Shown here: one piece after another, positions 4,622 to 25,442 of the stretch
Layout of the letters: every line of letters begins with the position of its first letter
Position numbering within the stretch: position 1 is the stretch's first letter
Assembly (NCBI RefSeq): GCF_054482525.1
Contig: NZ_CM137006.1
Direction: 5' to 3' (one strand)
Length of the DNA: 64,000 nt
The notes under the pieces: generated by a model
Databases searched by the model: none
Told to the model about the DNA's origin: nothing
Seen by the model: only the letters and a program-made list of their open reading frames with translations
Position numbers and translations under genes: made by a program

Positions 4622-5005
4622 TTAACGCTTCTCCCAGCCGCCCTGTTGTGCCGTAAACCCCAGTGCCTGCATAAACGCCGTCATCACACCGCGATCTTCC
4701 ACGCCTGCATCCGCCATCCACCAGCATGAAACGCCAGGATTGTTACGCAAAACCTCTTCCAGCAGATATTGCCCCACACCGCGACGGCGGGTGACTTCCC
4801 TAACACGCAGGGAATCCAGTGCGCCCTCCGTGCCGCTTAAGGTTACCCGCACGGCCGCGAGAAGGCGCTCGTTAAAACGCGCGGCGTAGATACGGTGGTT
4901 ATCGTCAACCTGTAACGAGGAAGGGGAATACTCCGGCCAGATCTTTTGCAGGTCAATCCGGTCCTGGTCGCTAAAGTTTTCTAATCGAATGATGGTCAGC
5001 TTCAT
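4622..5005 (-). CDS. panM: PanD maturation factor PanM (GNAT fold)
   Basis: 127-aa ORF MKLTIIRLENFSDQDRIDLQKIWPEYSP; located between livJ and livK as in K-12 (yhhK). Confidence 0.88.
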   Translation of the reverse strand: MKLTIIRLENFSDQDRIDLQKIWPEYSPSSLQVDDNHRIYAARFNERLLAAVRVTLSGTEGALDSLRVREVTRRRGVGQYLLEEVLRNNPGVSCWWMADAGVEDRGVMTAFMQALGFTAQQGGWEKR

Positions 5006-5185
5006 GGGGAACCCGTGTAAATCACAAAAGTGGAACCAGTGTAGCGAAATAATTTAATCGGAGGCTTTCTCTTTTTTAATTCTTTTGGCAGGTGATTAAT
5101 TTTTTAACAGCAATAATTACAAAGTTAAAACATTAGAGAATGAAAAATACCCAGCATAATCCCCTGAATGGTAGTGAATTATTCC

Positions 5186-5230
5186 GCCCTTTGTGCCGTT
5201 ATTTTATGCTGACAAAGGCACTTTTTTCTG
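5186..5230 (+). terminator. candidate stem-loop plus T-run in the livK upstream leader (possible attenuator)
   Basis: cctttgt ... acaaagg stem with long loop, followed by cttttttctg; weak. Confidence 0.25.
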
Positions 5231-5428
5231 TTTATCTATCAATAAATTCAGAATATTATCTGTTCTTAATCGACTGAAAAATAGGGGTTTTAATCGCTAT
5301 TATCACAAAATACTGCGCTAAACCCTTAATCAGACAGGCAAAAACAGTGCAGTATAAAAAAAGAACAGTCTGATTTGTTAACACATAAAAACAAAGCAAC
5401 ACAACATCACGAATGGGGATTTTTGACT

Positions 5429-6538
5429 ATGAAACGGAATGCGAAACCTATCATCGCAGGGATGATTGCACTGGCAATTTCACACACCGCTATGGCTGAC
5501 GATATTAAAGTCGCCGTTGTCGGCGCGATGTCCGGCCCGATTGCCCAGTGGGGCGATATGGAATTTAACGGCGCGCGTCAGGCGATTAAAGACATTAATG
5601 CCAAAGGGGGAATTAAAGGCGATAAGCTGGTTGGCATGGAATATGACGACGCCTGCGACCCGAAACAAGCCGTTGCGGTCGCCAACAAAATCGTTAACGA
5701 CGGCATTAAATACGTTATTGGGCACCTGTGTTCCTCCTCTACCCAACCTGCATCAGATATCTACGAAGACGAAGGTATTCTGATGATTTCGCCGGGAGCG
5801 ACCAACCCGGAGCTGACCCAACGCGGTTATCAATACATCATGCGTACTGCCGGGCTGGACTCTTCCCAGGGGCCAACGGCGGCAAAATACATTCTTGAGA
5901 CGGTGAAGCCCCAGCGCATCGCCATCATTCACGACAAACAACAGTATGGCGAAGGGCTGGCACGTTCGGTGCAGGACGGGCTGAAAGCGGCTAACGCCAA
6001 CGTCGTCTTCTTCGACGGCATTACCGCTGGCGAGAAAGATTTCTCCGCACTGATCGCTCGTCTGAAAAAAGAAAACATCGACTTCGTTTACTACGGCGGT
6101 TACTACCCGGAAATGGGGCAGATGCTGCGCCAGGCCCGTTCCGTTGGCCTGAAAACCCAGTTTATGGGGCCGGAAGGTGTGGGTAACGCATCATTGTCGA
6201 ACATTGCCGGTGATGCTGCCGAAGGCATGTTGGTCACTATGCCAAAACGCTATGACCAGGACCCGGCAAACCAGGGCATCGTTGATGCGCTGAAAGCAGA
6301 CAAGAAAGATCCGTCCGGGCCTTATGTCTGGATCACTTATGCGGCGGTGCAATCTCTGGCAACTGCCCTTGAGCGTACCGGCAGCGATGAGCCGCTGGCG
6401 CTGGTGAAAGATTTAAAAGCTAACGGTGCAAACACCGTGATTGGGCCGCTGAACTGGGATGAAAAAGGCGATCTTAAGGGATTTGATTTTGGTGTCTTCC
6501 AGTGGCACGCCGACGGTTCATCCACGGCAGCCAAGTGA
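5429..6538 (+). CDS. livK: leucine-specific periplasmic binding protein LivK
   Basis: Track ORF trimmed to [23 protein letters not shown] (369 aa); clear paralogue of the upstream livJ product. Confidence 0.93.
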
Positions 6539-6585
6539 TCATCCCACCGCCCGTGAAAAACGGGCGGGTTTAGAAAGGTTACCTT

Positions 6586-7512
6586 ATGTCTGAGCAGTTT
6601 TTGTATTTCTTGCAGCAGATGTTTAACGGCGTCACGCTGGGCAGTACCTACGCGCTGATAGCCATCGGCTACACCATGGTTTACGGCATTATCGGCATGA
6701 TCAACTTCGCCCACGGCGAGGTTTATATGATTGGCAGCTATGTCTCATTTATGATCATCGCCGCGCTGATGATGATGGGCATTGATACCGGCTGGCTACT
6801 GGTGGCGGCTGGATTCGTCGGCGCAATCGTCATTGCCAGCGCCTACGGCTGGAGTATCGAACGGGTAGCCTATCGCCCGGTGCGTAACTCTAAGCGCCTG
6901 ATTGCGCTCATCTCGGCAATCGGTATGTCCATCTTCCTGCAAAACTACGTCAGCCTGACCGAAGGTTCGCGCGACGTGGCGCTGCCGAGCCTGTTTAACG
7001 GTCAGTGGGTGGTGGGTCATAGCGAAAACTTCTCTGCCTCTATTACCACCATGCAGGCGGTGATCTGGATTGTTACTTTCCTCGCCATGCTGGCGCTGAC
7101 GATTTTCATTCGTTATTCCCGTATGGGGCGCGCCTGCCGTGCCTGCGCGGAAGATCTGAAAATGGCGAGTCTGCTTGGCATTAACACCGACCGGGTGATT
7201 GCGCTGACCTTTGTGATTGGCGCGGCGATGGCGGCGGTGGCGGGTGTGCTGCTCGGTCAGTTCTACGGCGTCATTAACCCCTACATCGGCTTTATGGCCG
7301 GGATGAAAGCCTTTACCGCTGCGGTGCTCGGTGGGATTGGCAGCATTCCGGGAGCGATGATTGGCGGCCTGATTCTGGGGATTGCGGAGGCGCTCTCTTC
7401 TGCCTATCTGAGTACGGAATATAAAGATGTGGTCTCATTCGCCCTGCTGATTCTGGTGTTGCTGGTGATGCCGACCGGTATTCTGGGTCGCCCGGAGGTA
7501 GAGAAAGTATGA
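6586..7512 (+). CDS. livH: branched-chain amino acid ABC permease LivH
   Basis: 308-aa polytopic ORF; operon position. Confidence 0.94.
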
Positions 7513-8786: not shown

Positions 8787-9550
8787 GTCAGCCATTATTA
8801 TCTGTTAACGGCCTGATGATGCGCTTCGGCGGCCTGCTGGCGGTGAACAACGTCAATCTTGAACTGTACCCGCAGGAGATCGTCTCGTTAATCGGCCCTA
8901 ACGGTGCCGGAAAAACCACGGTCTTCAACTGCCTGACCGGATTCTACAAACCTACCGGCGGCACCATTTTACTGCGCGATCAGCATCTGGAAGGTTTACC
9001 GGGGCAGCAAATCGCCCGCATGGGCGTGGTGCGCACCTTCCAGCATGTGCGTCTGTTCCGTGAAATGACGGTGATTGAAAACCTGCTGGTGGCACAGCAT
9101 CAGCAACTGAAAACCGGGCTGTTCTCCGGCCTGTTGAAAACACCCTCTTTCCGTCGCGCCCAGAGTGAAGCACTCGACCGCGCCGCCACCTGGCTTGAGC
9201 GTATTGGTTTGCTGGAACACGCCAACCGCCAGGCGAGCAACCTGGCCTATGGCGACCAGCGTCGTCTGGAGATCGCCCGCTGCATGGTGACGCAGCCGGA
9301 GATTTTAATGCTCGACGAACCGGCAGCAGGTCTTAACCCAAAAGAGACGAAAGAGCTGGATGAGCTGATTGCCGAACTGCGTAACCATCACAACACCACT
9401 ATCTTGTTGATTGAACACGATATGAAGCTGGTGATGGGGATTTCAGACAGAATTTACGTGGTCAACCAGGGGACGCCGCTGGCAAACGGTACGCCGGAGC
9501 AGATCCGTAATAACCCGGACGTGATCCGTGCCTATTTAGGTGAGGCATAA
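8783..9550 (+). CDS. livG: branched-chain amino acid ABC ATPase LivG
   Basis: 255 aa, Walker [10 protein letters not shown]; ATGA overlap with livM. Confidence 0.95.
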
Positions 9551-9551
9551 G

Positions 9552-10265
9552 ATGGAAAAAGTCATGTTGTCCTTTGACAAAGTCAGCGCCCACTACGGCA
9601 AAATCCAGGCGCTGCATGAGGTGAGCCTGCATATCAATCAGGGCGAGATTGTCACCCTCATTGGCGCGAACGGCGCGGGGAAAACCACCTTGCTCGGCAC
9701 GTTATGCGGCGACCCACGCGCCACCAGCGGGCGAATTGTGTTTGATGATAAAGACATTACCGACTGGCAGACGGCGAAAATCATGCGCGAAGCGGTGGCG
9801 ATTGTCCCGGAAGGGCGTCGTGTTTTCTCGCGGATGACGGTGGAAGAGAACCTGGCGATGGGCGGTTTTTTTGCTGAACGTGACCAGTTCCAGGAACGCA
9901 TAAAGTGGGTGTATGAACTGTTTCCGCGTCTCCATGAACGCCGTGTTCAGCGGGCGGGCACCATGTCCGGCGGTGAGCAGCAGATGCTGGCGATTGGTCG
10001 CGCGCTGATGAGCAACCCGCGTTTATTGTTGCTTGATGAGCCATCGCTCGGTCTTGCGCCGATTATCATCCAGCAGATTTTCGACACCATCGAGCAGCTG
10101 CGCGAGCAGGGGATGACCATCTTCCTCGTCGAGCAGAACGCCAACCAGGCGCTAAAGCTGGCGGATCGCGGCTACGTGCTGGAAAACGGCCATGTTGTGC
10201 TCTCCGATACCGGCGATACGCTGCTGGCGAATGAAGCGGTGAGAAGTGCGTATTTAGGCGGGTAA
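9552..10265 (+). CDS. livF: branched-chain amino acid ABC ATPase LivF
   Basis: Track ORF 9540..10265 trimmed to MEKVMLSFDKVSAHYGKIQ (237 aa); Walker A GANGAGKTT. Confidence 0.93.
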   Translation: MEKVMLSFDKVSAHYGKIQALHEVSLHINQGEIVTLIGANGAGKTTLLGTLCGDPRATSGRIVFDDKDITDWQTAKIMREAVAIVPEGRRVFSRMTVEENLAMGGFFAERDQFQERIKWVYELFPRLHERRVQRAGTMSGGEQQMLAIGRALMSNPRLLLLDEPSLGLAPIIIQQIFDTIEQLREQGMTIFLVEQNANQALKLADRGYVLENGHVVLSDTGDTLLANEAVRSAYLGG

Positions 10266-10413: not shown

Positions 10414-11321
<908 letters not shown>

Positions 11322-11845
11322 TCCAGGAGATGCTCCTGCATGGCTTTCAGATATGCATTTTCTGCGCGAAGATAACGCAGCTCATTCTTCATCTCTTCCG
11401 GCGTCATGTTTGCCTCGTTTTCATGGGTATCATCAGAACGGGTCATGCTTTTCTCCTTCCTGCGCCTGATAAAGGCCTCATTACCAGATTTGCGGTAGCC
11501 TTTTATCCAGTTTTTAACCGTGTTGTGGCTGGGAATGTTAAACCGGGCAGCTACCCGGGGTAGAGACTCAGAATGCCCGAGAGCATAAAGAACCACGCAA
11601 AGTTTATCTTCAGGAGAATAGCTACGCTTGTGTCTGCAATCCAGTGCCCGAGGACCGTGAAGAAGAAAAAGATTAATCCAGTGTGAGAGGCTGGTGTGAG
11701 AAAGTTGAAAGAGTTTTGCCGTAGAAATGATGCCTGCATGACCAGCCAGGTAGTGATTTACAGCGGCAAGTTTTACTTCAAATGAATGTTTCATAAACTG
11801 CACCTTCAGATGTCAGATTATGTCCAACATTTGGGGTGCAGTTCA

Positions 11846-11868
11846 TACGCCGCATCCGGCATGAAACG
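11846..11868. repeat. right half of the REP/PU split by the IS (starts with TAC duplication)
   Basis: tacgccgcatccggcatgaaacg. Confidence 0.8.
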
Positions 11869-11979: not shown

Positions 11980-12097
11980 CTTACTATCTTACAAATGTAA
12001 CAAAAAAGTTATTTTTCTGTAATTCGAGCATGTCATGTTACCCCGCGAGCATAAAACGCGTGAATTCGCGCATTCGGTACAACAAGAGAGATAAACG

Positions 12098-13414
12098 ATG
12101 AAACCGTTACATTATACAGCTTCAGCACTGGCGCTCGGACTGGCGTTAATGGGGAATGCACAGGCAGTGACGACCATTCCGTTCTGGCATTCTATGGAAG
12201 GGGAACTGGGTAAAGAGGTGGATTCTCTGGCCCAACGTTTTAACGCCGAAAACCCGGATTACAAAATTGTACCGACCTATAAAGGCAACTACGAACAGAA
12301 TTTAAGCGCGGGGATTGCCGCATTTCGTACCGGCAACGCGCCTGCTATTTTGCAGGTTTATGAAGTTGGCACCGCCACCATGATGGCGTCGAAGGCCATT
12401 AAACCGGTGTATGACGTGTTTAAAGAGGCGGGGATTCAGTTCGATGAGTCGCAGTTTGTGCCGACGGTTTCAGGCTACTACTCCGACAGCAAAACCGGCC
12501 ACTTACTCTCCCAGCCGTTCAACAGCTCGACTCCCGTTCTCTATTACAACAAAGACGCCTTCAAGAAAGCCGGTTTAGACCCGGATCAGCCGCCGAAAAC
12601 CTGGCAGGATCTGGCGGACTATGCCGCAAAACTGAAAGCCTCCGGTATGAAGTGCGGCTACGCCAGCGGCTGGCAGGGCTGGATCCAACTGGAAAACTTT
12701 AGCGCCTGGAACGGTCTGCCGTTTGCCAGCAAAAACAACGGCTTTGACGGCACAGACGCGGTGCTGGAGTTCAACAAGCCGGAGCAGGTGAAACACATCG
12801 CTATGCTCGAAGAGATGAACAAGAAGGGCGATTTCAGCTACGTCGGGCGTAAGGATGAATCCACTGAGAAGTTCTATAACGGTGATTGCGCGATGACCAC
12901 CGCCTCTTCCGGTTCTCTCGCCAACATTCGCGAGTACGCCAAATTTAACTACGGCGTAGGCATGATGCCTTACGACGCCGATGCGAAAGATGCGCCACAA
13001 AACGCCATTATCGGCGGAGCCAGCTTGTGGGTAATGCAGGGTAAAGATAAAGAAACTTATACGGGTGTGGCGAAGTTCCTCGACTTCCTCGCGAAGCCAG
13101 AAAACGCTGCCGAGTGGCATCAGAAAACTGGTTATCTGCCAATCACCAAAGCGGCGTATGACCTGACCCGTGAGCAGGGTTTTTATGAGAAAAACCCAGG
13201 GGCGGATACCGCGACGCGTCAGATGCTGAATAAGCCGCCGTTACCGTTCACCAAAGGGCTGCGTCTGGGCAACATGCCGCAGATCCGCGTGATTGTGGAT
13301 GAAGAGCTGGAGAGCGTGTGGACCGGTAAGAAGACGCCACAGCAGGCGCTGGATACCGCCGTTGAGCGTGGGAATCAGTTACTGCGCCGCTTTGAGCAGT
13401 CTACGAAGTCTTAA
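12098..13414 (+). CDS. ugpB: sn-glycerol-3-phosphate periplasmic binding protein UgpB
   Basis: 438-aa ORF with signal peptide [23 protein letters not shown]. Confidence 0.95.
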
Positions 13415-13420
13415 TTCTCT

Positions 13421-13567
13421 TACCCTCACCCTAACCCTCTCCCAAAGGGAGAGGGGACCGATCGGCGTGGTATCCAGGTGCCGTGTCGGTTTGCAACTTC
13501 GCTCGGTGGGAAAGTATGCACCGCCTTTCTCCCTCGCCCCTCTGGGGAGAGGGCCGGGGTGAGGGGA
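13421..13567. repeat. GC-rich nested inverted-repeat element between ugpB and ugpA (boxC/RSA-like intergenic repeat)
   Basis: ccctcaccc-ccctctccc-aaa-gggagaggg at the left edge mirrored by cccctctggggagaggg-ggggtgaggg at the right edge. Confidence 0.5.
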
Positions 13568-13589
13568 ACACAACACGAAGAGTTTAACT

Positions 13590-14477
13590 ATGTCATCATC
13601 CCGTCCGGTGTTCCGCTCGCGCTGGCTGCCCTATTTGCTGGTCGCGCCGCAGCTCATCATCACCGTTATCTTTTTTATCTGGCCTGCGGGCGAAGCGTTG
13701 TGGTACTCGCTGCAAAGCGTCGATCCGTTTGGTTTCTCCAGCCAGTTTGTCGGCCTGGATAACTTCGTCACGCTGTTTCATGACAGCTACTATCTCGACT
13801 CCTTCTGGACGACGATAAAATTCAGCACCTTTGTCACCGTCAGTGGTTTGCTGGTGTCGCTGTTCTTTGCGGCGCTGGTGGAGTACATCGTGCGCGGCAG
13901 CCGTTTCTATCAAACCTTGATGCTGCTGCCGTATGCCGTGGCTCCCGCCGTTGCCGCCGTATTGTGGATCTTCCTGTTTAACCCTGGTCGCGGGCTGATC
14001 ACCCATTTTCTCGCTGAGTTCGGCTACGACTGGAACCACGCGCAAAACAGCGGTCAGGCGATGTTTCTGGTGGTGTTTGCCTCGGTGTGGAAGCAAATCA
14101 GCTACAACTTCCTGTTCTTCTATGCCGCGCTGCAATCCATTCCCCGTTCGTTGATCGAAGCCGCAGCCATCGACGGTGCAGGCCCGATTCGCCGCTTCTT
14201 TAAGATTGCGCTGCCGCTTATCGCTCCGGTGAGTTTCTTCCTGCTGGTGGTGAACCTGGTATACGCCTTCTTCGACACCTTCCCGGTGATCGACGCCGCC
14301 ACGTCCGGCGGGCCGGTTCAGGCCACCACGACGCTGATTTATAAGATTTACCGCGAAGGCTTTACCGGACTGGATCTGGCTTCGTCTGCCGCGCAGTCGG
14401 TGGTGTTGATGTTCCTCGTCATCGTGCTGACGGTGGTGCAGTTCCGCTATGTTGAAAGCAAGGTGCGTTACCAATGA
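13590..14477 (+). CDS. ugpA: sn-glycerol-3-phosphate ABC permease UgpA
   Basis: 295-aa polytopic ORF. Confidence 0.94.
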
Positions 14478-15319
14478 TTGAGAACCGTCCGTGGCTGACA
14501 ATATTCAGCCATACCATGTTGATCCTCGGGATCGCGGTGATCCTCTTCCCGCTGTACGTGGCGTTTGTCGCGGCGACGCTGGATAAACAGGCCGTCTATG
14601 CCGCGCCGATGACGCTCATCCCCGGCACACATCTGCTGGAAAATATCCACAACATCTGGGTGAACGGGGTAGGCACGAATAGTGCGCCTTTCTGGCGGAT
14701 GTTGCTTAACAGCTTTGTGATGGCGTTCAGCATTACGCTCGGCAAAATTACCGTCTCGATGCTCTCGGCATTTGCCATTGTCTGGTTTCGTTTTCCGCTG
14801 CGTAACCTCTTCTTCTGGATGATTTTTATCACTCTGATGTTGCCGGTTGAAGTGCGTATTTTCCCGACGGTGGAAGTCATCGCCAATCTGAAGATGCTCG
14901 ACAGCTACGCCGGCTTAACGCTGCCGCTGATGGCCTCGGCGACCGCCACCTTCCTGTTCCGCCAGTTCTTTATGACGCTGCCGGATGAGCTGGTGGAAGC
15001 TGCGCGGATCGACGGCGCGTCACCAATGCGTTTCTTTTGCGACATCGTTTTTCCGCTGTCCAAAACCAATCTGGCGGCGCTGTTTGTGATCACCTTTATC
15101 TACGGCTGGAACCAGTATTTGTGGCCGTTGTTGATTATTACCGATGTGGATCTCGGCACCACCGTAGCAGGGATTAAAGGGATGATCGCCACAGGCGAAG
15201 GCACCACGGAATGGAACTCGGTGATGGCGGCGATGTTGTTAACCCTGATCCCACCAGTAGTGATTGTTTTAGTGATGCAGCGTGCCTTCGTGCGCGGCCT
15301 GGTCGATAGTGAGAAATAA
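14474..15319 (+). CDS. ugpE: sn-glycerol-3-phosphate ABC permease UgpE
   Basis: 281 aa; ATGA overlap with ugpA. Confidence 0.94.
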
Positions 15320-15320
15320 G

Positions 15321-16391
15321 ATGGCAGGACTGAAATTACAGGCAGTAACCAAAAGCTGGGATGGCAAAACCCAGGTCATTAAACCGCTGACCCTTGATGT
15401 GGCGGATGGCGAATTTATCGTGATGGTCGGGCCGTCTGGCTGCGGGAAATCGACGTTATTGCGAATGGTGGCCGGACTGGAGCGGGTAACGACGGGCGAT
15501 ATCTGGATCGACCGCAAGCGTGTCACCGAAATGGAGCCGAAAGATCGCGGGATTGCGATGGTGTTTCAGAACTACGCGCTTTATCCGCATATGAGCGTCG
15601 AAGAAAACATGGCGTGGGGGCTGAAAATTCGCGGCATGGGCAAGCAGCAAATTGCCGAGCGCGTTAAAGAAGCGGCGCGCATTCTGGAGCTGGACGGCCT
15701 GCTTAAGCGCCGCCCGCGTGAGCTATCTGGCGGTCAGCGTCAGCGTGTGGCGATGGGGCGTGCGATTGTGCGTGAGCCGGCAGTGTTCCTGTTTGATGAG
15801 CCGCTCTCTAACCTCGATGCCAAGCTGCGCGTACAGATGCGTCTTGAACTGCAACAGCTGCACCGTCGCCTGAAAACGACTTCACTCTACGTTACTCACG
15901 ATCAGGTTGAGGCGATGACGCTCGCCCAGCGAGTAATGGTGATGAACGGCGGCGTTGCCGAACAGATTGGCACGCCAGTTGAAGTCTACGAAAAGCCCGC
16001 CAGCCTGTTTGTGGCGAGTTTTATTGGCAGTCCGGCGATGAATCTGCTGACAGGCCGCGTGAATAATGAAGGCACGCATTTTGAACTGGACGGCGGTATC
16101 GTGCTACCGCTAAACGGTGGCTACCGTCAGTATGCCGGGCGTAAAATGACTCTCGGCATTCGCCCGGAACATATTGCGCTAAGCTCGCAGGCAGAAGGCG
16201 GCGTACCGCTGGTGATGGACACGCTGGAGATCCTCGGCGCTGATAATCTGGCGCACGGACGCTGGGGCGAACAGAAGCTGGTGGTGCGACTGGCGCATCA
16301 GGAGCGCCCGACGGCAGGCAGCACGCTGTGGCTGCATCTGCCGGAAAATCAGCTGCATCTTTTTGATGGTGAAACAGGACAACGAGTATGA
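15321..16391 (+). CDS. ugpC: sn-glycerol-3-phosphate ABC ATPase UgpC
   Basis: Track ORF 15282..16391 trimmed to [15 protein letters not shown] (356 aa); Walker [10 protein letters not shown]. Confidence 0.93.
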
Positions 16392-17131
16392 GTAACTGGC
16401 CTTATCCCCGCATCGTCGCCCATCGTGGCGGCGGTAAACTGGCCCCGGAAAACACCCTGGCGGCAATCGACGTGGGGGCAAAATACGGTCATAAGATGAT
16501 CGAATTTGACGCGAAGTTATCGAAAGATGGCGAGATCTTCCTGCTCCATGACGACAATCTCGAACGTACCAGCAACGGCTGGGGCGTCGCGGGTGAACTG
16601 AACTGGCAGGATTTACTGCGCGTGGATGCGGGCAGTTGGTACAGCAAAGCGTTTAAAGGTGAGCCGCTGCCGTTGCTTTCGCAGGTGGCGGAACGCTGTC
16701 GTGAACACGGGATGATGGCGAATATCGAAATCAAGCCCACCACTGGCACCGGGCCATTAACGGGCAAAATGGTGGCGCTGGCGGCACGCGAACTGTGGGC
16801 CGATATGACGCCGCCGCTGCTGTCATCGTTTGAGATTGATGCTTTAGAAGCTGCACAACAGGCTGCACCGGAACTGCCGCGCGGTTTGTTGTTGGATGAG
16901 TGGCGCGACGACTGGCGAGAACTGACCGCGCGACTGGGCTGCGTCTCTATTCATCTCAATCATAAGTTGCTTGATAAAGCGCGAGTGATGCAGTTGAAAG
17001 ACGCCGGATTACGGATTCTGGTTTATACCGTCAATAAACCCCAGCGCGCGGCAGAGTTGCTGCGCTGGGGCGTGGATTGCATCTGCACCGATGCGATTGA
17101 CGTGATTGGTCCGAACTTTACGGCCCAATAG
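16388..17131 (+). CDS. ugpQ: glycerophosphodiester phosphodiesterase UgpQ
   Basis: 247 aa; HR..G..PENT motif of the GDPD family. Confidence 0.93.
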
Positions 17132-17558
17132 TTTTCAACGGAATGTCAGGCTGCGGCGTGCTGGGCTGATTCAGCATGTCGCCGTTTCTCCTCTCCGGCA
17201 GCATATGCTGCTGATTCAACGAACTATCCGGATTACGGTTGCTGTTTAACATCCCGCCGTTGGTGTTGGGCAGCATTTGCTGCCGGGCGGGATTTCGCTC
17301 CCCCGGCTGCGACTGCAACACCCGCTGGGAGTTGTTGTTTATCTGGTTTTCTAAATGCTGCTGTTGCAGCTGCGTTTGCGTTTTCAGTTGCTGGTTCAGC
17401 ATCCCTTTTTGCTGGATTTGCTGCGTCTGCATTTGAGTCTGCATCCGCTGCTGGCTGGGGATCTGATATCCCGGCTGGTTGGGGTTGTTCAGAGTATTAA
17501 TGGGCTGTGCAAAGCCGACAAACGGCAGGAGTGCCGTAAGAATCAGAAGTCGTTTCAT
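17118..17558 (-). CDS. yhhA: Gln-rich secreted low-complexity protein YhhA
   Basis: 146-aa ORF with signal peptide [17 protein letters not shown] followed by Q-rich repeats; convergent overlap with ugpQ. Confidence 0.85.
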
Positions 17559-17677
17559 CGCGTATCCTCCTCTGAAGATATCCTTTAAGTTTACTCGCTT
17601 CCCGGCAAAACGATGATTAATTCAGAGTTATATACCAGGCTTAGCTGGGGTTGCCCCTTAATCTCTGGAGAATAACG

Positions 17678-19420
17678 ATGATAAAACCGACGTTTTTACG
17701 CCGGGTGGCCATTGCTGCTCTGCTCTCAGGAAGTTGTTTTAGCGCCGCCGCCGCGCCTCCTCCGCCACCTGTTTCTTATGGCGTGGAGGAAGATGTCTTC
17801 CATCCGGTACGCGCGAAACAGGGGATGGTGGCGTCTGTAGATGCTACTGCCACTCAGGTGGGGGTGGATATCCTCAAGGAGGGCGGGAATGCCGTTGATG
17901 CCGCCGTGGCTGTGGGCTACGCGCTGGCGGTAACGCATCCGCAGGCAGGGAATCTGGGCGGTGGTGGTTTTATGCTGATCCGCTCGAAAAATGGCAATAC
18001 CACCGCTATCGATTTCCGCGAAATGGCACCCGCCAAAGCGACCCGCGATATGTTCCTCGATGACCAGGGCAACCCGGACAGCAAAAAATCACTCACTTCG
18101 CATCTGGCCTCCGGTACGCCAGGTACGGTCGCAGGTTTCTCGCAGGCGCTGGAGAAGTACGGCACCATGCCGTTAAATAAAGTGGTGCAGCCGGCGTTTA
18201 AACTGGCACGCGATGGTTTTATCGTTAATGACGCGCTGGCTGACGATCTCAAAACCTACGGTAGCGAAGTGTTGCCGAATCACGAAAACAGCAAGGCTAT
18301 CTTCTGGAAAGAGGGCGCGCCGCTGAAAAAGGGCGACAAGCTGGTGCAGGCGAACCTGGCAAAGAGCCTGGAGATGATTGCCGAAAACGGCCCGGACGAA
18401 TTCTACAAAGGCACAATAGCGGAGCAGATCGCTCAGGAGATGCAGAAAAACGGTGGCTTGATCACTAAAGAAGATTTAGCGGCGTATAAAGCGGTCGAAC
18501 GTACACCGATTAGCGGCGAATATCGCGGGTATCAGGTTTACTCGATGCCACCGCCATCTTCCGGTGGGATTCATATCGTGCAGATCCTCAATATCCTGGA
18601 AAACTTCGATATGCAGAAATACGGCTTTGGCAGCGCCGATGCGATGCAAATCATGGCAGAAGCGGAGAAATACGCCTACGCCGACCGCTCGGAATATCTT
18701 GGCGATCCGGATTTTGTGAAAGTCCCGTGGCAGGCGCTGACCAATAAAGCCTATGCCAAATCTATTGCCGATCAAATCGATATCAATAAAGCGAAGCCAT
18801 CCAGCGAAATTCGCCCCGGCAAGCTTGCGCCTTATGAGAGTAATCAAACTACCCATTACTCAGTGGTGGATAAAGACGGCAACGCGGTAGCGGTGACCTA
18901 TACGCTGAACACCACCTTCGGTACGGGCATTGTCGCGGGTGATAGCGGTATTCTGCTTAATAACCAAATGGATGATTTCTCCGCCAAACCTGGCGTACCG
19001 AACGTTTACGGGCTGGTGGGCGGTGACGCCAACGCGGTCGGGCCGAATAAACGCCCGCTGTCGTCGATGTCCCCAACCATTGTGGTGAAAGACGGTAAAA
19101 CCTGGCTGGTTACCGGTAGCCCTGGCGGGAGCCGGATTATCACCACCGTGCTGCAAATGGTAGTGAATAGTATCGATTATGGCATGAACGTCGCCGAAGC
19201 GACCAATGCGCCGCGTTTCCACCATCAGTGGTTGCCGGACGAGCTGCGTGTCGAAAAAGGGTTTAGCCCGGATACGATCAAGCTGCTGGAAGCAAAAGGT
19301 CAGAAAGTGGCGCTGAAAGAGGCGATGGGCAGTACACAAAGCATTATGGTTGGGCCTGACGGTGAGCTGTACGGTGCATCTGACCCGCGCTCGGTAGATG
19401 ATTTAACGGCGGGGTATTAA
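17678..19420 (+). CDS. ggt: gamma-glutamyltranspeptidase
   Basis: Track ORF 17651..19420 trimmed to MIKPTFLRRVAIAALLSGSCFSAAAA (580 aa); conserved Thr-containing TTHYSV autoprocessing region. Confidence 0.94.
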   Translation: MIKPTFLRRVAIAALLSGSCFSAAAAPPPPPVSYGVEEDVFHPVRAKQGMVASVDATATQVGVDILKEGGNAVDAAVAVGYALAVTHPQAGNLGGGGFMLIRSKNGNTTAIDFREMAPAKATRDMFLDDQGNPDSKKSLTSHLASGTPGTVAGFSQALEKYGTMPLNKVVQPAFKLARDGFIVNDALADDLKTYGSEVLPNHENSKAIFWKEGAPLKKGDKLVQANLAKSLEMIAENGPDEFYKGTIAEQIAQEMQKNGGLITKEDLAAYKAVERTPISGEYRGYQVYSMPPPSSGGIHIVQILNILENFDMQKYGFGSADAMQIMAEAEKYAYADRSEYLGDPDFVKVPWQALTNKAYAKSIADQIDINKAKPSSEIRPGKLAPYESNQTTHYSVVDKDGNAVAVTYTLNTTFGTGIVAGDSGILLNNQMDDFSAKPGVPNVYGLVGGDANAVGPNKRPLSSMSPTIVVKDGKTWLVTGSPGGSRIITTVLQMVVNSIDYGMNVAEATNAPRFHHQWLPDELRVEKGFSPDTIKLLEAKGQKVALKEAMGSTQSIMVGPDGELYGASDPRSVDDLTAGY

Positions 19421-19426
19421 TATCTT

Positions 19427-19453
19427 AAGCCCTCTCCCGATAGGCGAGGGCTT
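19427..19453. terminator. hairpin between convergent ggt and yhhY (candidate bidirectional terminator)
   Basis: aagccctc ... gagggctt stem. Confidence 0.5.
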
Positions 19454-19480
19454 AAATGACAAACTTAGATTGCAAATTCT

Positions 19481-19969
19481 CTATTTCACCCGCGCCATAT
19501 AATACGCATCGACATATTCACCATTACGTAATGCGTACTTCTTGCCAGTCCCTTCAATCTCAAATCCAAATTTTTTATAGACCTTAATTGCTGGCGCGTT
19601 ATCGACGAACACCGTTAGCTCAATACGATCTACCCGCAACCAGTTGTCGCACATTTCAATCATCTCTCGCATCAGGGCGCTGGCGACGCCGCGATTCTTC
19701 CAACGGGAGTCGACACAAATACCAAAATCGGCAACATGACTGCGGCGTGGGCGCTGTTGCACGTCAATGGTGAGGTGACCCACGACGGTTCCATCAATAC
19801 AGGCAACTAACTGTTTGATGCCGGGACGATCGGCGAGTCGCTCCTGCCACATATGATCGGAAGGATGAGGCACCTGTAGTGTGTTGCAATACACCTCCGG
19901 CTGGGCGTGAATCTGCCTGATGGCCTCGTAATCGCGCGTTTCAGCATGGCGTATCACTATCTCACTCAT
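19481..19969 (-). CDS. yhhY: GNAT-family N-acetyltransferase YhhY
   Basis: Track ORF 19481..20047 trimmed to MSEIVIRHAETRDYEAIRQIHAQ (162 aa). Confidence 0.85.
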   Translation of the reverse strand: MSEIVIRHAETRDYEAIRQIHAQPEVYCNTLQVPHPSDHMWQERLADRPGIKQLVACIDGTVVGHLTIDVQQRPRRSHVADFGICVDSRWKNRGVASALMREMIEMCDNWLRVDRIELTVFVDNAPAIKVYKKFGFEIEGTGKKYALRNGEYVDAYYMARVK

Positions 19970-20061
19970 TCCTTTGTCCTCTTTGGGGTAAATGTCCCTT
20001 TCAACATCATTGACTTTCCAATGCGAGTCAAATGCATTTTTTTGCAAAAAGTGTTGGACAA

Positions 20062-20090
20062 GTGCGAATGAGAATGATTATTATTGTCTC
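20062..20090 (+). promoter_or_regulatory. Fur box overlapping the ryhB promoter
   Basis: aatgagaatgattattatt resembles the GATAATGATAATCATTATC consensus, immediately 5-prime of ryhB. Confidence 0.65.
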
Positions 20091-20180
20091 GCGATCAGGA
20101 AGACCCTCGCGGAGAACCTGAAAGCACGACATTGCTCACATTGCTTCCAGTATTACTTAGCCAGCCGGGTGCTGGCTTTT
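20091..20180 (+). ncRNA. ryhB: iron-responsive small RNA RyhB
   Basis: Sequence matches RyhB as recalled (gcgatcaggaagaccctcgcggagaacctgaaagcacgacattgctcacattgcttccag...); ends in intrinsic terminator ccagccgggtgctggctttttttt. Confidence 0.92.
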
Positions 20181-20301
20181 TTTTGATCTTTCGTTTTCAA
20201 TTTATCCACGGGAAGTGCTTGTGTTCGTTATGCGCACTCCAGTAGGAACCACGTCCGCTTTGCGCTAAGGTGTAAATAATCACCTTAAAAAGGACGAAAT
20301 C

Positions 20302-21339
20302 ATGGTCATCAACTGCGCCTTTATTGGCTTCGGCAAAAGCACCACCCGTTACCATCTGCCGTATGTACTTAACCGCAAGGATAGCTGGCATGTCGCGCAT
20401 ATTTTTCGCCGCCATGCGAAGCCGGAAGAACAGGCCCCCATTTACTCTCATATCCATTTCACCAGCGATCTCGACGAAGTACTAAACGATCCCGATGTTA
20501 AGCTGGTTGTGGTCTGCACCCATGCAGACAGCCACTTCGAGTACGCGAAGCGCGCGCTGGAAGCCGGGAAAAATGTGCTGGTCGAAAAACCGTTCACCCC
20601 GACGCTTGCGCAGGCGAAAGAGCTGTTTGCTCTGGCGAAAAGTAAAGGGCTGACCGTCACGCCATATCAGAATCGTCGCTTTGATTCCTGCTTCCTGACG
20701 GCGAAAAAAGCGATTGAAAGCGGCAAGCTGGGAGAGATTGTCGAAGTGGAAAGCCATTTTGACTATTACCGCCCGGTGGCAGAAACCAAACCTGGGCTGC
20801 CGCAGGATGGCGCGTTCTATGGCCTTGGTGTGCATACGATGGACCAGATTATTTCTCTGTTCGGTCGCCCGGATCACGTCGCTTATGACATCCGCAGCCT
20901 GCGTAATAAAGCCAATCCTGACGACACCTTTGAAGCGCAGCTGTTTTATGGCGACCTGAAAGCCATCGTCAAAACCAGCCATCTGGTGAAAATCGATTAT
21001 CCGAAATTTATCGTTCACGGTAAGAAAGGTTCGTTTATTAAATACGGTATCGACCAGCAGGAAACCAGCCTCAAGGCTAATATTATGCCGGGCGAACCGG
21101 GATTCGCGGCGGATGATTCGGTCGGTGTGCTGGAGTATGTCAATGACGAGGGCGTGACGGTCAGAGAAGAGATAAAGCCGGAGATGGGCGATTACGGGCG
21201 CGTTTATGATGCGTTGTATCAAACCATCACTAACGGTGCGCCAAATTACGTCAAGGAATCTGAAGTTCTTACCAATCTGGAAATCCTTGAACGAGGATTT
21301 GAGCAAGCCTCTCCCTCCACAGTGACTCTCGCGAAGTAA
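20302..21339 (+). CDS. yhhX: NAD(P)-dependent oxidoreductase YhhX (Gfo/Idh/MocA family)
   Basis: 345-aa ORF MVINCAFIGFGKSTTRYHLPYV. Confidence 0.9.
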   Translation: MVINCAFIGFGKSTTRYHLPYVLNRKDSWHVAHIFRRHAKPEEQAPIYSHIHFTSDLDEVLNDPDVKLVVVCTHADSHFEYAKRALEAGKNVLVEKPFTPTLAQAKELFALAKSKGLTVTPYQNRRFDSCFLTAKKAIESGKLGEIVEVESHFDYYRPVAETKPGLPQDGAFYGLGVHTMDQIISLFGRPDHVAYDIRSLRNKANPDDTFEAQLFYGDLKAIVKTSHLVKIDYPKFIVHGKKGSFIKYGIDQQETSLKANIMPGEPGFAADDSVGVLEYVNDEGVTVREEIKPEMGDYGRVYDALYQTITNGAPNYVKESEVLTNLEILERGFEQASPSTVTLAK

Positions 21340-25386: not shown

Positions 25387-25394
25387 GTTTGTTC

Positions 25395-25427
25395 GCCCGG
25401 TAGTTGTGACGCTACCGGGCTCTTTTC
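25395..25427 (+). terminator. rho-independent terminator after gntU
   Basis: gcccggtag ... ctaccgggc stem followed by tcttttcg. Confidence 0.6.
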
Positions 25428-25442
25428 GAAAAACTCTCCTCG

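Follow-up and report, generated by a model that had tools for sequence, protein, structure and literature searches.

The window analysed here, a stretch of 64,000 nucleotides, is 100% identical in BLAST comparison to the chromosome of Escherichia coli PCN033 (NZ_CP006632.1), a porcine ExPEC strain of serogroup O11 and phylogroup D (PMC4578781). The gene ggt, encoding gamma-glutamyltransferase, occupies positions 17678-19420 on the plus strand (PCN033 annotation, positions 4979-6721 of record L002, and the ORF list), ends in a TAA stop codon at 19418-19420, and forms the left flank of a variable site. The right flank is the yhhY gene at 19481-19969 on the minus strand (PCN033 annotation), with a TAG stop codon at 19481-19483 (ORF list); it encodes a GNAT N-acetyltransferase that matches the Pfam family Acetyltransf_1 (E = 2.8e-19). 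The two genes are convergent and lie tail to tail, separated by exactly 60 bp (19421-19480, assigned to neither strand) in which no ORF could be identified. The original prediction, that only a 60-bp hairpin-bearing spacer separates ggt from yhhY, is thus confirmed, as this spacer contains an inverted repeat.

The inverted repeat, TTAAGCCCTCTCC-CGATA-GGCGAGGGCTTAA, lies directly 3' of the ggt stop codon at 19425-19455 (no strand assigned), and was identified both as a repeat and from folds. Its arms (19425-19437 and 19443-19455) are 13 nt long, 92% complementary, and enclose a 5-nt loop. As RNA the hairpin has a predicted folding energy of about -18 to -19 kcal/mol, with z-scores against dinucleotide shuffles, in an 80-nt context, of -2.1 for the plus strand and -2.7 for the minus strand. 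It is more than a chance structure, since five other Escherichia lineages have kept it despite changes in sequence. A GC-rich hairpin between two convergent stop codons, with a structure conserved across Escherichia, is what bidirectional intrinsic terminators of convergent genes have in common with it. The hairpin of the window differs from these, however, in having no T-run 3' of the stem on either strand (the tails are TTAAATGA on the plus strand and TTAAGATA on the minus strand), and the consensus terminator scan made no call at the ggt-yhhY spacer. Hence the predicted bidirectional hairpin stands as a stable fold with 13-nt arms, but a bidirectional terminator is not established, because a U-tract is absent on both strands. 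For the transcripts of ggt and yhhY, which converge here, the hairpin would most likely serve as a 3'-end stabiliser or a weak terminator. Rfam models, searched against 19300-20400, gave no match in the spacer and identified only the RyhB sRNA, between yhhY and yhhX (20120-20184, plus strand; RF00057, 83 bits). The terminator scan places the intrinsic terminator of RyhB at 20159-20177, and a promoter-like site upstream of ryhB (20055-20084) lies in the stretch where a Fur box is expected.

The same two flanking genes are 3454 bp apart in E. coli K-12 MG1655 (b3442-b3446), where the gene order is yhhY, yhhZ, yrhA (split by IS1E, i.e. insA6/insB6), yrhD, yrhB and ggt. The K-12 map given in the original prediction (yhhZ, yrhA, an IS1 copy and yrhB between yhhY and ggt) is thus correct, with only the tiny yrhD omitted. 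The yhhZ-yrhAB segment appears as 'Gist34' in an earlier list of predicted genomic islands (PMC3309015). It occupies the same chromosomal site between the same flanking genes, of which the window carries the alternative, unoccupied allele, differing from the K-12 islet in the absence of any cargo, in its ancestral 60-bp spacer and in a different allele of the ggt-proximal hairpin. In BLAST alignments the homology of ggt to K-12 stops exactly at the stop codon (19420), and on the yhhY side the homology to occupied alleles restarts at about 19478, at the stop codon. Searches with blastn-short for the 60-bp spacer gave no match above 10 nt in the K-12 and yrhB-only alleles, and none above 10 nt to its right half in the alleles of K-12, L004, L003 and O157. 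The islet has a GC content of 29-35%, compared to 50-58% in its flanks; no GC dip is seen at the ggt-yhhY site of the window, and a tblastn search of all 64 kb found no copy of the site cargos anywhere.

Occupancy of the site was counted over 5426 complete E. coli genomes, with classes defined by BLAST coverage thresholds. The yhhZ islet is present in 3806 of these (about 70%), near full length in 3777. A different cargo of 1855 bp, encoding a 303-residue DUF4225 protein, is found in 343 genomes (6%), namely O157:H7 and relatives, and all copies are at least 99% identical. In another 233 genomes (4%) only yrhB is present, in a 435-bp insert that includes 98 bp found in no other allele, so that at least three different cargos use the ggt-yhhY site. 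The empty junction of the window type was detected in 903 of the 5426 genomes (by matches covering 80% or more of a junction query of 140 bp), and a second, hybrid empty allele, that of strain GPEC1185, in about 83 (819 full-length matches minus 736 low-identity matches to the window type). When the overlap of both searches is allowed for, about 970 genomes (about 17-18%) carry an empty allele. Together these classes add up to about 5350 genomes, leaving about 1% unclassified. Similar proportions were obtained in a systematic sample of 59 genomes searched with 20 kb (9 empty, 2 yrhB-only, 4 DUF4225 and about 44 islet), in which the class assignment was partly inferred from span lengths. Direct adjacency of ggt and yhhY in K-12 and in most strains, which would speak against a variable segment, is thus contradicted by the counts of 903 for the junction and 3806 for yhhZ, and the K-12 alignment and tabulation of occupants proposed along with the original prediction yielded a 3454-bp islet and several alternative cargos, respectively. 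Secondary decay of the islet is common, e.g. by IS1E in yrhA (K-12), IS3 in yrhB (strain CD45) and IS1B in yhhZ; in strain F1267 an IS1A-mediated deletion has taken the 5' end of yhhZ together with the 3' end of yhhY. As such this is an ordinary and already known variable islet site in a well-studied species, of which about 80% of strains have small toxin/immunity cassettes of horizontal origin at this position. That the islet was collapsed or lost in the assembly of PCN033 is hardly credible, as the junction is shared by 903 independently assembled complete genomes and by outgroup species, and a 20-kb stretch of the window is 100% identical in strain SCU-102.

The cargos encode different kinds of toxin and immunity proteins. 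YhhZ matches the Pfam family T6SS_HCP (E = 1.3e-12) and, weakly and below threshold, HNH; YrhB matches Imm35 (E = 1.2e-22); and YrhA, the gene of which overlaps yhhZ by 4 bp, has no Pfam match. YhhZ has been described as an 'evolved Hcp' with a degenerate HNH domain (Blondel 2009, PMC2907695) and placed in group 32 of the His-Me finger proteins (PMC5714182), and Hcp-ET proteins are T6SS antibacterial effectors (reviewed in PMC6730261). DUF4225 is an experimentally demonstrated T6SS antibacterial toxin domain (Jana et al. 2022, PMC9765294). On the basis of these Hcp-HNH, Imm35 and DUF4225 assignments, all cargos of the ggt-yhhY site consist of interbacterial toxin/immunity genes. By its domains YhhZ is similar to the orphan 'evolved Hcp'/Hcp-ET effector-immunity modules, and a module of this putative type is what about 70% of E. 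coli carry at the site, whereas it is absent from the window. The DUF4225 toxin is the alternative cargo of the O157 lineage and relatives at the same site (343 genomes), likewise absent from the window; its E. coli copy differs from the known system in having no adjacent hcp gene and no obvious immunity gene on the same strand. In O157 strain AR-0430 about 730 bp between ggt and the DUF4225 gene (L047, positions 9318-10050) are unannotated and contain an ORF of 138 residues on the opposite strand, probably encoding a membrane-associated protein, which overlaps the 3' end of the DUF4225 gene and is annotated as hypothetical in strain APEC37. No integrase or recombinase was found in the cargo annotations, which contain only toxin/immunity genes and secondary IS1 or IS3 elements, and no terminal direct or inverted repeats were found at the islet ends. 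The features by which att sites and mobile islands are recognised, i.e. a cargo-encoded recombinase and flanking direct repeats, are thus lacking at this site.

A YhhY scan with one genome per species gave 40 loci for comparison outside the E. coli genomes counted above. In E. whittamii, E. albertii and Escherichia sp. E1V33, and in the species representatives titled 'E. coli E69' and 'SCPM-O-B-8794', ggt and yhhY adjoin each other tail to tail, 34-122 bp apart, and the same adjacency (34-122 bp) was found in about 30 genomes of Citrobacter, Enterobacter, Lelliottia, Klebsiella, Pluralibacter and related genera. Only one of the 40 loci has yhhZ, and this is a mislabelled metagenome-assembled genome that is plainly E. 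coli (L007). The contig concerned (CABHOW010000200.1, titled 'Flavihumibacter sp.') carries E. coli yhhX-yhhY-yhhZ-yrhA, with amino acid identities to E. coli of 99-100% for yhhX-yhhY and 95-97% for yhhZ-yrhA; similarly, a contig titled 'Chryseobacterium sp. 18061' (L031, CACSKA010000004.1) carries an Enterobacter-like yhhX-yhhY-ggt-yhhA locus, and both probably represent contamination or mis-binning in public assemblies. The spacer of the window, hairpin included, shares 56 of 60 identical columns with that of E69, 53 of 60 with E1V33, 53 of 62 with E. albertii and 47 of 70 with E. whittamii. Since the outgroups have ggt adjoining yhhY, with homologous spacers in Escherichia, the empty form is ancestral and represents the original arrangement of the Enterobacteriaceae, in which ggt and yhhY are convergent neighbours throughout. 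The prediction that this strain has the unoccupied form of the site is accordingly supported both by the occupied site in K-12 and by the outgroup-type spacer found here. Taken together, sequence comparison makes it very probable that the 60-bp spacer of the window represents the unoccupied and ancestral allele at an intergenic hotspot with multiple alleles.

An alternative would be that a K-12-like ancestor lost the yhhZ-yrhB islet by deletion or excision and so acquired the empty site. The IS-mediated deletion of strain F1267 offers a precedent for this, but the alternative is very improbable. The right part of the spacer (19451-19480, no strand assigned; TTAAATGACAAACTTAGATTGCAAATTCT) is present in the window, in L006, in the hybrid allele of GPEC1185 (L049) and in outgroup Escherichia, among them E. 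albertii, E69 and E1V33, and has been replaced by cargo in all occupied alleles. These 29-30 bp could not be recreated by a deletion, and therefore the empty allele does not derive from loss of the islet. Moreover, the hairpin of the window is of the outgroup type and not of the K-12 type, and no scar, IS remnant or repeat is seen in the spacer. Simple excision of the islet is thereby effectively refuted.

The position of insertion can be read from the empty allele of GPEC1185, which is a natural hybrid consisting of the ggt stop codon, a hairpin of the K-12 type (GGTTAGCGGCCCTCTTCGTGGGAAGAGGGC), the ancestral right half of the spacer (TTAAATGACAAACTTATATTGCAAATTCT) and yhhY. It follows first that the hairpins of the K-12 type (GGCCCTCTTC-GTGG-GAAGAGGGCC) and the window type are alleles of one element at one position. 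Secondly, the cargo starts immediately 3' of the hairpin, between 19450 and 19451 of the window. Finally, the cargo runs to the yhhY stop codon, so that only about 29-30 bp of ancestral spacer have been replaced. This allelism was judged from individual folds and from the hybrid allele rather than from the RNAalifold consensus of ten hairpin alleles, which is weak (-7.4 kcal/mol) because MAFFT set the K-12-type hairpin out of register. On the ggt side the occupied alleles differ from the window in acquiring a T-run: the first bases of the cargo, TATTTTGT or TGTTTTCTT, place one after the hairpin which is absent from the ancestral allele. Inserted DNA may in this way turn the hairpin into a canonical ggt terminator in occupied alleles. 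Compared to the original prediction, these analyses add the ancestral polarity of the site, its true insertion point, its multiple cargos and the absence of a U-tract on both strands of the hairpin.

The yhhY gene of GPEC1185 (L049, positions 9122-9610) is itself divergent, with about 82% nucleotide and 84.6% amino acid identity to the yhhY of other E. coli strains. It is farther from these than yhhY of E. albertii is, and about 81% identical to all Escherichia outgroups, which suggests a xenologous replacement in that lineage.

The flanks of the site show a mosaic pattern of similarity. The window region from about 12000 to 20000 (ugpBAECQ-yhhA-ggt-yhhY) has an unusually high and patchy divergence, with identities in 250-bp windows ranging from 91 to 100% between E. 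coli strains, while the region at 25.4-29.4 kb (yhgN-asd-glgB), by contrast, is 99-100% identical. Over most of its length ggt is 93.5-96% identical between E. coli strains, a within-species divergence that approaches the level of E. albertii. One of its 5' segments, on the other hand, reaches 99.8% identity in the comparison of the window with strain 50579417 (L004), which carries the islet. Identity to this strain is 99-100% at 17421-18920 and from 19921 onwards, but only 93.6-98% over the intervening patch of some 1 kb, in which the site lies. Such a patch would fit the exchange of a whole allele by homologous recombination in ggt and yhhY; it is, however, weak evidence for any specific exchange, because the whole ugp-ggt-yhhY stretch is patchily mosaic. 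Sliding-window identity between PCN033 and L004 is likewise mosaic across the whole region, including the islet (92-100% between strains), and favours neither direction of exchange.

One history compatible with this pattern is that the yhhZ islet was once present in the PCN033 lineage, and that homologous recombination with a donor whose site was empty then restored the empty allele. Judged by the flanks (99-100% identity over the 5' two-thirds of ggt and from 19921), L004 is the closest sampled relative of PCN033 and yet bears the islet, the drop in identity is centred on the site, and the exact 1.6-kb allele of PCN033 is rare, with only five genomes at least 99% identical. An exchange is equally possible in the lineage of L004, as import of the islet, and the divergent patch is not unique in a region that is mosaic throughout. 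We consider regain of the empty allele a possible but rather unlikely course of events; the allele of PCN033 is of the ancestral type either way.

The alleles with the yhhZ islet and with the DUF4225 cargo of O157 have only the first 36 bp in common, and the left ends of these two unrelated cassettes fall on one and the same nucleotide, directly 3' of the hairpin. This raises the question whether the hairpin is an active, structure-specific capture point for unrelated toxin/immunity cassettes, either att-like or by targeting of a palindrome of the REP/BIME type. The palindrome motif itself is overrepresented: the loose pattern CCCTCNC-N3-12-GNGAGGG occurs three times in the 64-kb window (at 13435, 13531 and 19430), compared to 0.04 expected occurrences, and also in the ggt-yhhY spacer of other genera. 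Cargos, however, have no integrase or transposase of their own, and neither flanking direct repeats nor target duplications are present. Moreover, both junctions coincide with limits of functional constraint, one where the hairpin ends and the other at the stop codon of yhhY, and recombination in the flanks combined with purifying selection would give the same pattern. Targeted capture, for which the shared left junction is the one positive indication, therefore seems to us improbable; if true, it would give orphan T6SS effector modules a way of integrating at palindromes without any recombinase encoded by the cargo.

Two of the three motif occurrences belong to a pair of GC-rich palindromes in the ugpB-ugpA intergenic region (window about 13420-13575), CCCTCACCCTAACCCTCTCCCAAAGGGAGAGGGG and, downstream of it, CCCTCGCCCCTCTGGGGAGAGGGCCGGGGTGAGGGG. 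They share their core with the ggt-yhhY hairpin and with the spacers of Enterobacter and Lelliottia, and about 170 bp of this palindrome region are missing in L004 and L006. The ugpB-ugpA palindromes are possibly a BoxC-like or MITE-like repeat, and the ggt-yhhY palindrome may also resemble the BoxC-like repeated extragenic family. BoxC has been listed among the stem-loop repeat families (PMC2267715).

Two further variable sites were observed in the window. The livF-ugpB intergenic region (about 10414-11850) contains a copy of IS1397, of the IS3 family, with its transposase at 10446-11794 on the minus strand. IS1397 targets REP/BIME palindromes. The same site holds a gene for a TPR protein in O157, Z0117EC0051 and APEC37, a Phd/Doc toxin-antitoxin pair in GPEC1185, and nothing in K-12-like strains. 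A third variable site, still within 6 kb, is the gntU-yhgN intergenic region (25387-25442). PCN033 and K-12 have nothing inserted there, but many genomes (Z135-3, 23AR0762, Z0117EC0051, APEC37) carry a module of about 3.4 kb with two genes, encoding a RecQ-family helicase (with a weak C-terminal match to phosphoribosyltransferases) and, overlapping it, a protein with a DprA/SLOG domain; the helicase is frameshifted in O157. This module looks like a defence-type system.

Returning to the ggt-yhhY site, the reading that we prefer, i.e. an ancestral empty allele filled by different cargos, can be put as follows. Within E. coli, the 29-30 bp that separate the hairpin from the stop codon of yhhY have given way to AT-rich foreign cassettes. 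Each cassette would have entered once, by illegitimate recombination, the one basis for a single entry being that the cargo junctions are identical in unrelated strains. The insertion position is presumably neutral, since it is downstream of both ggt and yhhY. The islet is old, as its copies are 92-100% identical between strains, and all alleles, including the empty one, would subsequently have passed from one lineage to another through homologous recombination within the conserved flanking genes. Integrases, att repeats and target duplications would play no part in this process.

Chromosomal integration hotspots between conserved core genes of E. coli are a concept that reportedly goes back to Touchon et al. 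2009 and Oliveira et al. 2017. The ggt-yhhY site resembles such hotspots in its conserved flanks, in its several low-GC cargos, in the empty allele that still segregates and in its mosaic flanks. It differs from them in being very small (cargos of 0.4-3.5 kb), in holding toxin/immunity genes only, and in having no tRNA gene, integrase or prophage.

The site is a textbook case rather than a discovery, and leaves current understanding unchallenged. It provides a clean and small example of a long-lived presence/absence polymorphism, in which about 18% of genomes carry the ancestral empty allele, the cargo comes in three alternative forms and mobility genes are lacking. It could be used as a marker for typing, or for neutral insertions 3' of two convergent genes. 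For PCN033 it means that both the YhhZ/YrhA/YrhB module (an Hcp-HNH toxin, a putative immunity protein and Imm35) and the DUF4225 cassette are missing at a locus where most E. coli carry cargo, and this absence could affect the susceptibility of the strain to contact-dependent competition, or its armament for it.
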